NCBI GenBank assembly: GCA_021790115.1
Contig: JAJYIM010000004.1
Span: 1-62,139 of the forward strand
Source: Actinomycetes bacterium
GTDB taxonomy: Bacteria; Actinomycetota; Thermoleophilia; BMS3ABIN01
DNA length: 62,139 bases
Direction of reading: 5' to 3'
Position numbers and translations under genes: made by a program. The notes below the pieces were generated by a model, which ran no database searches, was not told the origin of the DNA, and worked only from the letters and a program-made list of their open reading frames with translations. How positions within the stretch are numbered: the first letter of the stretch is position 1; the number at the start of each line of letters is the position of its first letter. This document shows positions 1,145-6,679 of this stretch, piece by piece.

Positions 1145-2591
1145 ATGATCCCCGCCGCCATCGTCCAAAAACTCTGGAACTACTGTAACGTCCTCCGCGA
1201 CGACGGTATGGGCTACGGCGATTACGTCGAGCAGCTCACCTATCTGCTCTTCCTCAAAATGGCGGACGAGCGCACCAAGAAGCCGTACAACCAGAAGAGC
1301 ATCGTCCCGGACAAATACAGTTGGCAGAGTCTCATCAAGCGCGACGGCGACGAGCTTTTCGACCACTACCGCCATATCCTCGAAGCCCTGGGCCGCGAGA
1401 AGGGTCTGCTCGGCCTCATCTTTGGCAAGTCCCAGAACAAATTCCAGGACCCCGCCAAGCTTCGCCGGCTGATCATCGAGCTCATCGACAAGGAGAACTG
1501 GTCACGCATGAGCGCGGACGTCAAGGGCGACGCCTACGAAGGGCTTCTTAACAAAAACGCCGTGGAATCGCCCAAGGGAGCGGGGCAATACTTCACCCCG
1601 CGGCCGCTCATCAGCGCCATCGTCGATGCCGTGGCGCCCCAGCCCGGCGAGCAGATCTGCGACCCGGCCTGCGGCACCGGCGGCTTCCTGCTCGCCGCGC
1701 ACGACTATATTGTCGCGGGCAACGAACACCTCACCATGCACGGCATCGGCGGCCCGGAGTACGAGCCGGTCGTGGTGGGCGACTCGCTCGCGGCCGACCC
1801 CCAGGAGCGCTTCGAGCTGGTGCTCACCAATCCGCCCTTCGGCAAGAAAAGCAGCGTCACCATCGTCGGCGAGAACGGCAGGGCCGTGAAGGAGCGGGAG
1901 AGTTATGAGCGCGACGACTTCTGGACCACTACTTCCAACAAGCAGCTTAACTTTCTGCAGCATGTTAAGACGCTGCTTGCGATTAATGGGCGAGCGGCGA
2001 TTGTGGTGCCGGATAATGTGCTGTTTGAGGGCGGTGCTGGTGAAACGATCCGTCGCCGGCTGCTGGATGAGTGTGATGTCCATACGCTGCTACGGCTGCC
2101 GACCGGGTTGTTTTATGCGCAGGGCGTGAAGGCTAATGTTCTCTTCTTTGACAAGAAGCCTGCCAGCGAGGAACCCTGGACGCGGAAGCTGTGGATTTAC
2201 GACCTGCGGACGAACATGCACTTTACGCTGAAGACCAACCCGTTGCAGCGATCTGATTTGGATGATTTCGTGAAGTGCTATAAAAAAACCGGGAAAGGTT
2301 GCCCAGCGTAAGGATACCTGGTCTGAGGACCTGAAGGAGCTTTCACCGGGACAGACGGAGTACAAGGGCCGTTGGCGGGCATTCAGCTACGATGAACTGG
2401 TCGCTCGTGACGAAGCCAGCCTGGATATCTTCTGGCTACGGGATGAGAGCCTTGAAGATTCAGATAATCTGCCCGAGCCGGGCGTGATTGCGCAGGAGAT
2501 TGTTGCTGACCTTGAGGCGGCGCTGGTGCAGTTTAAGGAGATAGCGGCTGATTTGCGGAATAACGAAGAGATAGAGGAGCCTGATATTTAA
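1145..2591 (+). pseudogene. hsdM: Type I restriction-modification methyltransferase (HsdM), internally deleted and frameshifted
   Basis: IVQKLWNYCNVLRDDG N-terminus, GQYFTPR, motif I DPACGTGGF, motif IV NPPF. The ORF stops at 2311, but skipping one A of the A7 run (2282-2288) continues as KPGKVAQRKDTW...GRWRAFSYDELVARDEASLDIFWLRDESLEDSDNLPEPGVIAQEIVADLEAAL, the normal HsdM C-terminus, ending TAA 2589-2591. The segment between AAHDYIV...HLT and MHGIG is about 35 aa shorter than usual. Confidence 0.88.
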
Positions 2592-2674
2592 GCCTGCCGG
2601 CTGGTTTTCTATAATATCTTCATACCAACTCCCCCTTCTGTTCTTTCCTTTTTTACCTTCCTATTTTCGAAAAA

Positions 2675-2707
2675 TTGACAGTGCCTTTTTGTTATTTTAT
2701 GATAACA
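2675..2707 (+). promoter_or_regulatory. Sigma70-type promoter with palindromic operator over the -10 box
   Basis: TTGACA (2675-2680), 17-nt spacer, TATGAT (2698-2703); inverted repeat TGTTAT-N6-ATAACA (2690-2707). Confidence 0.7.
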
Positions 2708-2737
2708 GTATGTTGTCGATAACCTTCCAAGGGGAGA

Positions 2738-3130
2738 ATGCTTTTGACGCAGCGAAGTCAGGTCGAGTTTGCTCTTGCTAAATTCCGAGAACACTGGCCA
2801 CCAAATTGCCGGTTGGCCGAACAGCGCGACAAAAATCTCCAGGCTTTGGCAGATCTGAATTTAACTGCCGACCAAAGAAAAGAAATAATCCTCCATTTGA
2901 AAGTTGAAAATTACGTATCGGGACCGCTGGAGGACAAGGGGAAGGGAGGTGGCAGCATCTGGATTTTTGGCAAGTTTATCGAAGACATTGAGGTCTATAT
3001 AAAGCTAAGCCTTTTTGGGGCTGGTGGAAAACTATATGCCAAATGTATTTCTTTTCATCCAGCGGACCAGCCATTGACCTATCCATTTTCGAAAGGAGGC
3101 GAGACAAATGACCAAGAATTTTCATGTTAA
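2738..3130 (+). CDS. MqsR-like (RelE-fold) type II toxin
   Basis: RDKNLQALADLNLT...YVSGPLED...IWIFGK...VYIKL...CISFHPADQPLTYPF pattern, directly upstream of an MqsA-like antitoxin; RBS aagggga; overlaps the next gene. Confidence 0.75.
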   Translation: MLLTQRSQVEFALAKFREHWPPNCRLAEQRDKNLQALADLNLTADQRKEIILHLKVENYVSGPLEDKGKGGGSIWIFGKFIEDIEVYIKLSLFGAGGKLYAKCISFHPADQPLTYPFSKGGETNDQEFSC

Positions 3131-4166
3131 ATACGTCAAGGAAGACGTATGCCCCGTTTGCGAAGATATTCAAAAAATTGGAGTGGGAACCAGAAAAGAA
3201 GTAGTGACCATAAAAAAAGAACCGGTTGGAGTTGCGGCGAAAGTTGAGAAATGTACAAAATGTGGTGAATTTTTTTCCAGTTCCGAAGATGATGAAGTTG
3301 CTATACAGCAGGCGTATGGCAAATACCGCAGGATTCACAATCTTTTACAACCTACCGAGATCCGGGAGATTCGTGAAAAATATGGCCTGGGCCAGCGTGC
3401 CTTTGCCAGGGTTTTGGGCTGGGGCGAAATAACTATTCATCGGTATGAGGCGGGCTCGCTGCAAGATGACGCCCATAACGATGCTTTATTGTTGGTTCGT
3501 GATGCGGATAACTTTGCAAAAATATATGAACGCACCAGGCATTTACTTCCCAAAAGAGTCGCCAGGCGCGTGGACGGGCGGCTCGCAAATTTACTAGCTG
3601 AATCTCAAGAGGAAAATCTGCACAAATTCCTTGAAACCCAGTTCCTAAAATCCCGGGATGATATCGAGAGCGGCTATAGACGTTTTGATTTGGATCGCTT
3701 TGAATCCGCCATCCTTTACTTTTGTAATGAATTACAATTTGTCTTTAAAACCAAGCTTAACAAGCTCCTTTGGTATTTTGATTTTTTGACATTCAAGCGA
3801 ACTACTCGTTCTGCAACGGGAGCCGTGTATGTTCACTTTCCATACGGGCCCGTTCCTTATCATTACGATATTTTCCTGGCGAATCTCATTGATGAAAGAG
3901 CCTTGGAACCGACGGAAATGACTTTTGATGAGGAGAAGGCCATTGCCGGTGAATGGTATAAGGCACTTGAAGAACCGGATATGACCTTGTTTGATCAAAT
4001 GGAATTAAAATGTTTGCAAACCGTCAGTAAAGTATTTGGCCCGATGAGCGCTAAAAAAATATCAGATCGTTCGCATAATGAAGAGGGATATAAACAAACT
4101 GGTAATAATGAAGTTATTTCATATGAATGGGCTGATCTAGTCCAGATAACGGACCAAGATAACTAA
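3108..4166 (+). CDS. Antitoxin with MqsA-type Zn finger, XRE HTH and C-terminal Panacea (DUF4065/SocA-like) domain
   Basis: CPVC...CTKC zinc finger; IREIREKYGLGQRAFARVLGWGEITIHRYEAG HTH; KTKLNKLLWYFDF...YVHFPYGPVP...SDRSHNE..Y...I.Y is the DUF4065 signature; RBS aaggagg. Confidence 0.85.
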   Translation: MTKNFHVKYVKEDVCPVCEDIQKIGVGTRKEVVTIKKEPVGVAAKVEKCTKCGEFFSSSEDDEVAIQQAYGKYRRIHNLLQPTEIREIREKYGLGQRAFARVLGWGEITIHRYEAGSLQDDAHNDALLLVRDADNFAKIYERTRHLLPKRVARRVDGRLANLLAESQEENLHKFLETQFLKSRDDIESGYRRFDLDRFESAILYFCNELQFVFKTKLNKLLWYFDFLTFKRTTRSATGAVYVHFPYGPVPYHYDIFLANLIDERALEPTEMTFDEEKAIAGEWYKALEEPDMTLFDQMELKCLQTVSKVFGPMSAKKISDRSHNEEGYKQTGNNEVISYEWADLVQITDQDN

Positions 4167-4181
4167 CGAAAGGTGATTGAG

Positions 4182-4439
4182 ATGGCCAAGTCCAAAGTGA
4201 CCGGCAAGAAAGCAGCAAGTAGAGCGTCAAAAACGTTAACGAAGAAATCATCAGGTTCGAAATCAAAAACGGCAGCTGGAAGTGCTTTATCCCAGACAAA
4301 GGCGCCGAAGAAAGTTACTTCTAAGAAAGCGGCGTCCGCTGCTTCAAAGGTGCTTAAATCAAAAAAGGCCAGCAAGAGTTCCAAAGCAGCAGCGGGCAGT
4401 GCTCTTTCACAGACGCCATCCCGGAAGAAGAAAAGATAA
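4182..4439 (+). CDS. Small Lys/Ala/Ser-rich basic protein with two 34-aa repeats ending AAGSALSQT
   Basis: RBS aaggtga 5 nt before ATG 4182 (ORF track starts at GTG 4173); the repeats differ at synonymous positions, which supports coding status. Confidence 0.8.
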   Translation: MAKSKVTGKKAASRASKTLTKKSSGSKSKTAAGSALSQTKAPKKVTSKKAASAASKVLKSKKASKSSKAAAGSALSQTPSRKKKR

Positions 4440-4619
4440 TCACCCGGAAACTCAGGAATTCTGGGGACTCAATACTGAACGCCCGGCATTCTCGAAGTTG
4501 CCGGCGGTGAGGTTCGAGAAAAAGGGAAATAATGCTGGGTCTCCATTCATCTTGCAGAATTACCACGCAATTTTGCAAAGCTTTTGAAAATATGCATGAA
4601 CTCCGGCGAAATGCCGGCC

Positions 4620-6128
4620 TCACGCCCTCACCTTCCTGGTCCCGCCCCGGAAACCCTTGCCGGCCGCGGAAAAGACCCTGTTTCTCTGCAGCTTGTAAAT
4701 ATAGGAGACCAGCCACTCCAGGGCGTCCCCGGAGAGCCCCGTCTTGTCATTGAAGCCGATCGTCTCCTTGCCGATCAGCATGACCAGGTAAGCCAGCCGG
4801 TCGGCGTCTGTCCCCTTCATCGCCAGGCGGTAATCGGGATGCAGGCGGTTGATGCGGACGATGCCGCTGATGAACTCGCTGTGACGGCTGGCGCCGTCTT
4901 CAAAATCATCCTCCATGACATTGATCCTGGAGCCTGTGGGCGACTGTTCGTCACCCGGTTTCCGGGAACGCTCCCCCGTGTTATTGCCGGCTGGTTTGCT
5001 CTGGCGCCGCGTAGCCTGGCGACGCCGCCAGGCCAGGCCGCCGAGCAGCTCCAGGTCCATGAAGTCGTCGTCTTCGAGGATATCGCGGGCCAGCTCGATT
5101 GCTTTTCTGTGGATCTCCTGCTGGCGGCGGAGGTCCTCCTCCGTGCGGATCGAATCGACCTCTTCGCTTAAGACCTTGCCGATCGTCTCCAGCTCGATTA
5201 ACAGGGCCAGCCAGTCGTCGTTAGCCTCAAAGCCGGTTCTTGACGGCAGGGGCTTCAAAAAATCCGCTTCGATGAAGCCGCGCACGAAGCCGCTGCTGTA
5301 GATGGTCTCCCCCCAATACACTTCGGTTTGCGCCCTCTCGCCGAGGTCGTCGATCACGTCCACGCCGGCGTGACGGACCGAGACGGTTCCCTTGCCGGTG
5401 CTGTCATAATAAAAACAGGTTTTGAATTTCCTGCCGGGCTCATTGGTGAGAAGCCAGTCTCTGCAATCCCCAGCCAGCCGGGGGAGCCCGAGGTCGGGCG
5501 GCGCCACGGTTCTGGAAGCGCCGTGGGCCTCTATTATCAGCACCAGGTCGCCGCCGCGCAGGTAGGAATCGTAGAGCTCGCCCCACTTTTTCGCCAGCCT
5601 GTCAACGGCGAGCGGGCCCCTCGCCTTGGTCGGCCTGGCCTTCAGCTCGCTGATGATGATCTTCATGCCGGGTTCGGGCAATGAATCCTTCCTGTTGGCC
5701 TTTTCAAAATCGGCGTCATCCCTGCCCTCTTTCAGCGTCACCCTGAGGGTAGGCAGAGCCGGGGCCTTCTTGCTGAAAAAGGTGCATTTCTTTCCCACCT
5801 GCATGAAACCCCAGATGCCGATGCCCAACTGGCCTATCTGGGCGATGTCCTTGCCCTTCTTAATCGAATCGGCGACGCGCTGGAGCATCTGCTCGAACTC
5901 CTTTTCATCCATCCCGGGAGCGTTGTGCTCGATGACGATCCTTGATGGAGTGATGCGGCAGGAGACCTTGCAGGCGCCGAGCTCCAGCCCCATATCCTTC
6001 CCCTCGCGCCAGGCGTCGAGCGCGTTGCTGACATATTCCTTAAGCGCGTCCGCCGGACTCTGGTAGAGCTGTCCCAGATAGGAGAGCATGGCGGCCATGT
6101 TGCCCTGTATCCTGACCTTCCTGGCCAC
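4620..6128 (-). CDS. GHKL (MORC/Hsp90-like) ATPase-domain protein
   Basis: N box EYVSNALDA, G1-like HNAPGM, G2 box GQLGIG, C-terminal INRLHPDY. Likely start is GTG at 6128, overlapping the TAG of the upstream HTH gene (the ORF track start 6182 is probably too long). Confidence 0.8.
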   Translation of the reverse strand: MARKVRIQGNMAAMLSYLGQLYQSPADALKEYVSNALDAWREGKDMGLELGACKVSCRITPSRIVIEHNAPGMDEKEFEQMLQRVADSIKKGKDIAQIGQLGIGIWGFMQVGKKCTFFSKKAPALPTLRVTLKEGRDDADFEKANRKDSLPEPGMKIIISELKARPTKARGPLAVDRLAKKWGELYDSYLRGGDLVLIIEAHGASRTVAPPDLGLPRLAGDCRDWLLTNEPGRKFKTCFYYDSTGKGTVSVRHAGVDVIDDLGERAQTEVYWGETIYSSGFVRGFIEADFLKPLPSRTGFEANDDWLALLIELETIGKVLSEEVDSIRTEEDLRRQQEIHRKAIELARDILEDDDFMDLELLGGLAWRRRQATRRQSKPAGNNTGERSRKPGDEQSPTGSRINVMEDDFEDGASRHSEFISGIVRINRLHPDYRLAMKGTDADRLAYLVMLIGKETIGFNDKTGLSGDALEWLVSYIYKLQRNRVFSAAGKGFRGGTRKVRA

Positions 6129-6679
6129 TACTTCTTCCCTTTCCCGAAAAACCGGAAGCGGTTGGTGGTCAGCGCCAGCCACCGCTGGAAGCTGGCTTCG
6201 TTCCCCATCATCGTCAGCAGGCTGGCGATATAGCCGACGTCATACTGGTCAAGCCTTTTTCGGAATGTATCCCGGACCTCGGGCGAGCCATCCTTGAACC
6301 ACCGGAGCTCGCTTTCCAGCAATATCAGCAGCAGCTTGATCTTTTCGGCGCGCTCTTGCGCCGCCGGTTGATGTGCTTGCCTGAATGGGTCTGGACGGTG
6401 GCGCCGCAGCTTTGTATTCGCCGCGGCATCTTCCCCTGCCACAGGCGCTTCGTCAGGAGAGCCTTCGAGGCCGTCCAGATAAGAACTCACTTTTTCCAAA
6501 TGCTGTCTGGACGGTAGCGTCCTGGTTTTTTCCTTCCGGAACCACTGGGCGACGGTGGACCTGGGGATTGCCAGTTGCCTGGCCAGCTCGGAGACATTCA
6601 TTCCGCACCCCTCGATATGCGCGGATAATTCATTAATCGCTTGCTCGGCCGAGATGGTTTTTTTCCTGCTGCGGCTCAT
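6128..6679 (-). CDS. XRE-family HTH protein with an unassigned C-terminal helical region
   Basis: MNVSELARQLAIPRSTVAQWFR helix-turn-helix; coupled to the ATPase gene. Confidence 0.75.
   Translation of the reverse strand: MSRSRKKTISAEQAINELSAHIEGCGMNVSELARQLAIPRSTVAQWFRKEKTRTLPSRQHLEKVSSYLDGLEGSPDEAPVAGEDAAANTKLRRHRPDPFRQAHQPAAQERAEKIKLLLILLESELRWFKDGSPEVRDTFRKRLDQYDVGYIASLLTMMGNEASFQRWLALTTNRFRFFGKGKK

Follow-up and report, generated by a model that had tools for sequence, protein, structure and literature searches.

A widespread small protein with two predicted hairpins, most likely a facultative passenger of a Panacea toxin–antitoxin cassette

Among toxin–antitoxin (TA) systems built on a Panacea-domain antitoxin (PanAT), MqsR-like toxins are the commonest recognised partners, and the gene order is toxin then antitoxin (PMC8832971). 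Third genes are present in a small fraction of PanAT loci (Kurata et al. 2022, PMC8832971). Architectures of three genes were admitted in the same work, which describes 25 'accessory' clusters of sporadic occurrence, whose third genes its authors considered probably to have no general role in toxicity or neutralisation; it also names two kinds of tripartite TA system, paaR-paaA-parE and the TA-chaperone (TAC) modules (PMC8832971). Here we describe a small gene at positions 4182–4439 of a 62,139-nt stretch of DNA from an Actinomycetes bacterium (contig JAJYIM010000004.1; the whole stretch is referred to below as the window), which directly follows the antitoxin gene of a locus of the PanAT kind. 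The locus resembles PanAT with MqsR-like toxins in its toxin-then-antitoxin order, in the antitoxin's N-terminal helix-turn-helix (HTH) part and C-terminal Panacea domain, and in its probable MqsR-like toxin. It also has in common with paaR-paaA-parE and TAC a small co-directional third gene in a TA operon, which in paaR is a regulator. Those tripartite systems, however, keep their third gene together with the pair, and its role is defined, whereas the gene described here is not conserved with its pair. It had originally been predicted to be a conserved third partner of the Panacea system and, as such, something new, a premise already overtaken by the published three-gene architectures and accessory clusters.

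We suggest, with a probability of roughly 0.6, that the gene encodes a widespread small two-hairpin protein and is a mobile, promiscuous accessory gene with no fixed partner, riding on a TA cassette. The gene and its parts are as follows.

4182..4439, plus strand: small basic protein gene, 85 aa plus stop codon; two-repeat member of the phrog_5079-like 'AAGSALSQ' helical-hairpin family
4197..4298, plus strand: repeat 1, residues 6–39, VTGKKAASRASKTLTKKSSGSKSKTAAGSALSQT, corresponding to predicted hairpin 1
4314..4415, plus strand: repeat 2, residues 45–78, VTSKKAASAASKVLKSKKASKSSKAAAGSALSQT, corresponding to predicted hairpin 2; the type that occurs singly in most viral homologues
4171..4177, plus strand: Shine-Dalgarno-like AAGGTGA, ending 4 nt 5' of the ATG (direct sequence reading)

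The antitoxin gene ends with a TAA at 4164–4166 and, after a gap of 15 nt, the small open reading frame (ORF) runs for 85 codons from the ATG at 4182 to a stop codon at 4437–4439. The ORF list gives a GTG at 4173 as an alternative upstream start, but the ATG is the likely one because more than 30 aligned homologues begin with M-[AST]-K-x-K-V-T. Lysine, serine and alanine account for 23, 19 and 17 of the 85 residues (27%, 22% and 20%), giving the protein a pI of ~12 and a net charge of ~+26. Its two 34-residue repeats follow each other with a period of 39 aa and are identical at 23 of 34 residues vs 58 of 102 nucleotides, with different codons at 14 of the 23 identical residues. The nonapeptide AAGSALSQT is the same in both copies, while five of its nine codons differ synonymously (GCT/GCG, GGA/GGC, TTA/CTT, TCC/TCA, ACA/ACG), exactly as the original prediction had it. 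The position of the ORF behind the antitoxin, its own ribosome-binding site (RBS), its composition and its repeat structure were likewise borne out on direct reading, and each repeat independently matches phrog_5079. The selection on the protein postulated at the same time is real too: against 11 homologues, the proportion of nonsynonymous differences (pN) is 0.18–0.23, far below the proportion of synonymous ones (pS), which at 0.77–0.94 is saturated. Since the ORF has a profile match, homologues of the same length and a pN much lower than pS, we conclude that it is a real gene under strong purifying selection at the level of the protein. A search for matches to structured RNA families of Rfam found none in 2400–4800. 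The tandem duplication must be old, since both the repeat-1 and the repeat-2 type are found conserved in different phyla.

At least 1179 homologous proteins were found at E <= 0.01, nearly all of them 82–86 aa long, and every one that carries a name is labelled 'hypothetical'. The family forms 246 clusters at 50% identity. Relatives at 52–77% identity are carried by at least 381 species-representative genomes from more than 10 phyla, the phyla and groups being Desulfobacterota, Spirochaetota, Chlorobiota, Planctomycetota, Acidobacteriota, Gemmatimonadota, Bacteroidota, Patescibacteria, Actinomycetota, Deinococcota and Beta/Gammaproteobacteria. The family is also found in 133 IMG/VR viral contigs, where most versions have one repeat and 44–49 aa (e.g. 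MANKKQTSKKVASKASKILRDGRYSKSSKSVAGSALSQTK..KKK). The repeat unit, a predicted helix-turn-helix-like hairpin of ~35 aa, can be written T-x-x-AA-x-x-AS-K-x-L ... SK-x-AAGSALSQ, and is present once in most phage versions and twice in most cellular ones. Single-repeat viral proteins match phrog_5079 (PHROGs v4, 'unknown function') at E 1e-17 to 1e-22; the window protein matches this 49-position profile in two stretches (E 1.1e-20), each repeat aligning to nearly its whole length and repeat 2 covering positions 8–49. Every invariant or near-invariant column of the family is kept in the window protein (T7, A15, S16/K17, L19, K29, G33-S34-A35-L36-S37-Q38 and the repeat-2 equivalents). Judged by these profile and motif matches, it belongs to the phrog_5079-like 'AAGSALSQ' hairpin family, from whose phage members it differs in being a tandem duplication that sits in a bacterial TA cassette. 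As phrog_5079 has no functional annotation, the match names the family and does not explain it. The family is thus large, widespread and catalogued, but unstudied: no paper on it was found by its motif, by its PHROG identifier or as a small hairpin protein in the paper on GASH/GTPase conflict systems.

An AlphaFold2 (AF2) model from a 33-sequence alignment (predicted local distance difference test, pLDDT, 81.7) places helices at residues 9–20, 26–37, 48–59 and 65–76, which would form two hairpins. The small protein matches no Pfam, NCBIfam or PADLOC family model, and a profile search of the PDB with it gave nothing significant. Translated searches (tblastn) of PLSDB plasmids and INPHARED phages returned no match, a result that is uninformative, as the low-complexity filter probably masks the query. 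Most of the family is basic, with a median net charge of +17 and 83 of 93 members at +8 or above. Lysine- and alanine-rich DNA-binding proteins or tails are known in the histone H1-like proteins Hc1 and Hc2 and in the C-terminal repeats of mycobacterial HupB. By analogy with these small, very basic and K/A/S-rich sequences, DNA binding by the window protein is plausible. It differs from them in that its family has a specific conserved motif, a predicted folded hairpin instead of a disordered tail, and a few acidic members. The window protein has no Pfam match to HC2 or related families at E <= 1, and no helix-hairpin-helix match was found by profile or structure. A further resemblance is to the fungal conidiation protein Con-6 (PF10346), which is likewise small and hydrophilic, with two ~34-aa repeats and a similar motif (xTLxNPxxSxxAKxxAxxxL). 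Four of 69 family members match Con-6, the best at E 6.2e-4 and all below the gathering score of 25 bits; the window protein itself has no such match, and homology is unproven.

If the small gene were a dedicated part of the Panacea system, it should follow the pair through homologous loci. The combined MqsA-Panacea architecture occurs in at least 372 proteins at E <= 1e-10. For comparison, 80 metagenomic loci with antitoxin homologues at 39–64% identity were collected, using an alignment as the query (the single antitoxin sequence retrieved no relatives); in 63 of them the sequence continues for at least 300 nt beyond the antitoxin. A toxin homologue lies directly 5' of the antitoxin, abutting or overlapping it, in 73 of the 80, so that a co-directional partner within 100 nt is conserved across species, as is required of PanAT pairs; the overlap in the window is 23 nt. 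Relatives of the small protein, by contrast, are present in none of the 80 loci according to tblastn without low-complexity masking, and the family hidden Markov model (HMM), run on all six-frame segments of these loci, gave a best E of 1.6, compared with 4e-35 for the copy in the window. Even the closest antitoxin relatives (62–64% identity, with 2–3 kb of downstream sequence) lack the gene. Viewed from the other side, the profile search and co-occurrence count that had been proposed as a check for DUF4065/MqsA genes found the family scattered: a PanA gene is the neighbour in just one of 76 non-redundant loci carrying the small gene, and ~99% of family members do not adjoin a Panacea gene. 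A third gene conserved with the pair across homologous loci, as in tripartite TA systems, is therefore not what is found, and the conserved third Panacea partner of the original prediction falls away. The broader proposal of an accessory TA component survives in part: the gene is a member of the cassette and its module recurs with antitoxins elsewhere, but it is not conserved with the Panacea family. Most likely it rides as a facultative passenger on an MqsR-like/MqsA-Panacea cassette gained by horizontal transfer, and does not define this TA family as a third component. Taken jointly, the identity of the protein and its facultative, non-dedicated status seem to us highly probable.

Across the same 76 loci the neighbours are heterogeneous, with no conserved partner, although a positional asymmetry is apparent, with regulators upstream and defence effectors downstream of the small gene. 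Same-strand genes within 150 nt upstream (49 loci; these counts are indicative) include HTH_3 (Xre-type) in six, HTH with Peptidase_M78 in four, MerR, MqsA-like and HTH_37 proteins in two each, and HsdS/HsdM. Same-strand downstream genes (40 loci) encode AAA_21/AAA_15 OLD-like ATPases, SLOG, DUF4062, TIR, HamA, Abi_2, Cap15, patatin and one PanA. Gene calls from databases give similar arrangements: sigma70, HTH and M78 genes followed by the small gene and then an integrase or a type III restriction-modification (R-M) system; HTH-M78 upstream and a GASH/DO-GTPase system downstream; or the order small gene, 131-aa protein, HNH, FRG, GmrSD. Around the small gene in viral contigs, CI-like repressor or regulator PHROGs, the anti-repressor Ant and DNA methyltransferases are enriched, and the gene is often alone on the strand opposite to its neighbours.

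A more direct link to antitoxins comes from fusions. In two HigA2-like proteins (P0125 and P0183), encoded by genes that overlap a Gp49/HigB-like toxin gene at its stop codon, the module lies C-terminal to the HTH. In P0161, encoded directly 3' of a RES toxin gene, it is N-terminal to an Xre_MbcA_ParS_C toxin-binding domain, where the HTH is usually found, and in P0244 it is C-terminal to a HicB N-domain, in the position of the usual ribbon-helix-helix (RHH) or HTH domain. Five further fusions join it to HTH or winged-HTH proteins (P0187, P0198, P0207, P0240 and P0159). The single PanA-adjoining locus among the 76 (L023, from Melioribacteraceae) has the small gene between the toxin and the MqsA-Panacea antitoxin (L023/L255-258), an arrangement that is stable over 10 contigs. 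Its small protein is 69% identical to that of the window, vs 37% for the toxin and 29% for the antitoxin. The differing gene order and the lack of the gene in the 80 intermediate relatives suggest that it entered operons of this kind twice, independently. These observations lend some support to a link between the small protein and TA biology, as a facultative accessory that is independent of antitoxin family and not a Panacea-specific partner.

The cassette in which the window copy resides comprises the following features.

2591..4619, strand not applicable: low-GC island (0.38–0.49; window mean 0.58) with promoter, toxin, antitoxin, small gene and downstream spacer
2675..2703, plus strand: sigma-70-like promoter TTGACA-17-TATGAT, 11/12 match (consensus scan)
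2738..3130, plus strand: toxin, probably a distant MqsR-like protein, overlapping the antitoxin start by 23 nt (weak matches of relatives)
3108..4166, plus strand: antitoxin, MqsA-type zinc-ribbon/HTH N-terminal part plus C-terminal Panacea (DUF4065) domain (profile matches)

The Panacea/MqsA label given to the antitoxin beforehand is upheld by matches above the respective cut-offs, namely PF13274 at residues 217–328 (E 5.3e-17, 63.2 bits vs 25.7) and, in the N-terminal part, TIGR03830 (90.1 bits vs 61.8) and PF15731 (45.1 bits vs 30); the cysteines C15, C18, C49 and C52 of the CxxC...CxxC zinc ribbon are invariant. The MqsR label of the toxin holds less firmly. Weak matches to PF15723 (MqsR_toxin) are seen in 21 of 28 relatives (best E 7.4e-4), and 4 of 16 database homologues have a precomputed match, but the window toxin itself has no Pfam match at E <= 1. 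Its AF2 model, made with database homologues in the alignment (pLDDT 83), shows three helices followed by a four-stranded sheet, and a Foldseek search of the PDB with this model gave nothing significant, the top match being a Salmonella TA complex at E 0.14. The designation 'MqsR-like' is thus probable but unproven.

The site at 2675–2703 is the only strong promoter-like one 5' of all three genes, and consensus scans from there to the end of the small gene revealed no other convincing promoter-like or terminator-like site. The GC content at third codon positions (GC3) is 0.44 in the toxin, 0.40 in the antitoxin and 0.45 in the small gene vs 0.80 in the adjacent hsdM, and given this shared low GC and GC3 the three genes were very probably acquired together. 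Direct or inverted repeats that might mark a mobile cassette were sought around 2591–4619, with just short chance-level matches, and PADLOC-DB v2 has no match for the small protein, three of its relatives, the toxin, the antitoxin or the two downstream genes. The three-gene cassette recurs in L254, a second and independent contig, which comes from a sample of the same kind and matches window 2511–4785 at 100% identity. There an automatic gene caller called the toxin, with the start codon TTG 2744, and the antitoxin, and skipped the small ORF, which is why an exact-product look-up found no record of the window protein; other members of the family are probably missing from annotations too. A perfect 6-bp inverted repeat, TGTTAT-N6-ATAACA, lies at 2690–2707, overlaps the -10 hexamer of the promoter and is a candidate operator for the MqsA-type antitoxin.

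We propose that the gene inserts where mobile loci for defence, TA or prophage immunity hold their regulators. Typically it would lie directly 3' of an Xre-type HTH repressor, be this an antitoxin, a CI-like repressor or an ImmR-ImmA-like pair of HTH and M78 proteins, or directly 5' of the effector under regulation, or both. In the window it is most likely transcribed with the TA genes from the promoter at 2675–2703 and translated from its own RBS. High conservation across phyla combined with the lack of a fixed genomic partner points to a universal target, be it DNA, RNA or a conserved host machine. As most members are very basic, and as the module supplements or supplants the DNA-binding domain of repressor-antitoxins and its free copies lie beside Xre-type repressors, the protein may be a polyanion-binding (DNA-binding) hairpin module that assists or replaces the DNA-binding function of HTH repressors and antitoxins. 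It might help such repressors to hold or find their operators, or might coat and silence adjacent DNA. We put this helper role forward tentatively, as possible rather than probable. Somewhat more doubtful is its general form, in which the 'AAGSALSQ' hairpin would be an unrecognised DNA-binding or repressor-partner domain that has been recruited repeatedly by antitoxins (HigA2, HicB, ParS/MbcA and MqsA-PanA operons), ImmR/ImmA-like switches and phage immunity regions.

Several points weigh against these proposals. A Foldseek search with the AF2 model of the small protein against the PDB and BFVD gave no match with E < 0.7, to a DNA-binding fold or to any other. Five of 93 family members (P0181, P0154, P0178, P0176 and P0257) are neutral or acidic, with pI 4.2–6.4 and net charge -1 to -8, yet retain the AGSALSQ core (AAGSALSQ-like or AAASALSQ-like in P0181, P0154, P0176 and P0257), which argues for a function of the core other than plain electrostatic binding. 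HTH genes abound in defence islands, and the pattern of neighbours may simply result from the location of the family there; moreover, the ORF calls behind it were crude and some small neighbours are spurious, so that the counts are not exact. The fusions are a minority, ~10 of 150 listed cluster representatives, and single metagenomic ones may be assembly or frameshift artefacts. Finally, co-transcription of the small gene with the TA pair is a probable reading of spacing and consensus scans, and a search for RNA-seq runs that cover the window or two isolates with homologues yielded no usable run.

Alternatively, the small gene could be an independent passenger with a self-contained job, encoding either a hydrophilin-like (Con-6-like) stress protein or a phage moron aimed at a conserved component of the host, perhaps RNA polymerase, the ribosome or a protease; it would have come to rest here only because mobile genes build up in defence islands and cassettes. 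Its extreme conservation between phyla without a conserved genomic partner would suit a universal target of this sort. So would its frequent occurrence as a lone opposite-strand gene in viral contigs, the acidic variants, its travelling in three phyla with a tiny Cys/His-rich ORF and not with a regulator, and the weak sub-threshold resemblance to Con-6 (4 of 69 members, best E 6e-4, and P0204). All of the Con-6 matches, however, fall under the Pfam gathering threshold, and a gene with an unrelated job would hardly be expected to show repeated independent fusions to antitoxins of at least three families within verified TA operons, two insertions into divergent MqsR-like/PanA operons with different gene orders (the window and L023), and an asymmetry of regulators upstream vs effectors downstream. 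We regard this explanation, the main rival, as rather unlikely.

Far less probable is the dedicated third component of the original prediction, a protein that would modulate neutralisation or triggering in this particular PanAT system by binding to the toxin, to its RNA target or to the Panacea domain. The 15-nt spacing, the separate RBS, the GC content shared with the TA genes, the identical three-gene cassette in L254 and the distant PanAT with the gene stably placed between toxin and antitoxin in 10 contigs would all fit it. Against it, none of the 80 homologous loci that were sampled has the gene, the 62–64% relatives with 2–3 kb of downstream sequence included, a point in which the window also departs from the accessory third genes described for PanAT. 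It is further contradicted by the ~99% of the family that is not beside a Panacea gene, by the published view that sporadic third genes probably have no general role in toxicity or neutralisation (PMC8832971), and by the two PanAT cases themselves, whose differing gene orders and unequal identities (29–37% for the TA proteins vs 69% for the small proteins) indicate independent insertions. That the ORF might be no gene at all, but a chance reading frame in a K/A/S-rich low-complexity stretch or a mis-annotated spacer, could be argued from its having been skipped by the gene caller in L254 and from the missing record of its exact product. This reading is effectively refuted by conservation: more than 1000 homologues share the length and register of the ORF, pN is much lower than pS and the phrog_5079 match reaches E 1e-20, in addition to which the ORF has a good RBS and a confident AF2 model and lies in a region without Rfam matches. 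The mobile accessory gene without a fixed partner is therefore the reading that we retain.

Some of the loci that carry the small gene have recurrent companions. In Syntrophales, Spirochaetales and Desulfobacteraceae, a conserved Cys/His-rich ORF of 51–52 aa (MSKPSAPYYYKEGSDTYHWETSCSKNHYPA.GWKK....P.KEQCNECK.K) lies immediately upstream of it (at 5751–5909 in L001, at a distance of ~100–260 nt in L011 and L012, and in degenerate form in L013). The nucleotide sequences are 75–81% identical over 100–230 nt, which suggests a two-gene mini-cassette that moves between phyla; the Cys/His-rich ORF has no name in any source searched and no PDB relative. Two copies of the small gene per contig were seen in Oceanispirochaeta (L030 and L041) and in IMG/VR (L097 and L111), each Oceanispirochaeta copy being 3' of a near-identical Xre-type HTH gene (products of 124 and 109 aa, 88% identical). 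In several loci of Desulfuromonadales and proteobacteria (L053, L062, L070 and L073) the small gene overlaps the stop codon of a gene for a conserved 163–178-aa protein with a C-terminal transmembrane helix (…FWPQFGVNLAGGF…), and in L053 and L062 it is followed by the gene for a 674-aa P-loop ATPase. P0246 looks like a read-through fusion of the C-terminus of this membrane protein with the module. Two other neighbour families recur in varying positions and phyla, one of ~206–211 aa (position -1 in L014, +1 in L034, +2 in L042) and one of ~180 aa (-1 in L002, +1 in L017) with hydrophobic stretches resembling two transmembrane helices. A SLOG cluster2 match was obtained in two same-strand downstream neighbours, and we read the larger family as a SLOG protein and the smaller as SLATT-like, a reading that no per-protein family result confirms.

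The remainder of the first ~7 kb of the window looks, together with the cassette, like a defence/TA island. An overlapping gene pair at 170–849 may be a VapBC system: its second product (442–849) matches PAE0151 (PDB 2FE1, E 1.5e-7), which we take to be a PIN-domain protein. It is followed at 1145–2590 by hsdM, the methylase gene of a type I R-M system (PF02384, 1e-58; HsdM_N), which is split by a frameshift near 2285–2311, its conserved C-terminal part (…WSEDLKELSPGQTEYKGRWRAFSYDELVARDEASLDIFWLRDESL…) being read on in a different frame as far as 2590; either the gene is a pseudogene or the assembly is wrong at this point. Neither hsdS nor hsdR comes after hsdM, and the low-GC TA cassette starts right there. 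On the far side of the cassette, the minus strand carries a gene for a 520-aa GHKL-type ATPase (4620–6182; HATPase_c_3, 4e-9), convergent with the small gene, and upstream of that ATPase gene, with an overlap of 55 nt, one for a 183-aa HTH protein (6128–6679). Neither product has a PADLOC match, their sole PDB match is a marginal one to HtpG, and the two may make up an uncharacterised two-gene defence module.

The idea of a hidden conserved third partner of Panacea systems is thus removed, and the locus becomes an ordinary MqsR-like/PanA pair with a facultative passenger. The family of that passenger, which counts thousands of members from prophages and more than ten phyla at 55–77% identity, is a more useful lead than the Panacea locus itself, and gene callers at least sometimes miss its members. 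The fusions to antitoxins and the placement between regulators and effectors yield a cheap, testable hypothesis, that the protein is a new accessory, DNA-binding or regulatory, of mobile immune loci. If this is true, the hairpin module would be a general accessory regulator of TA and defence-gene expression.

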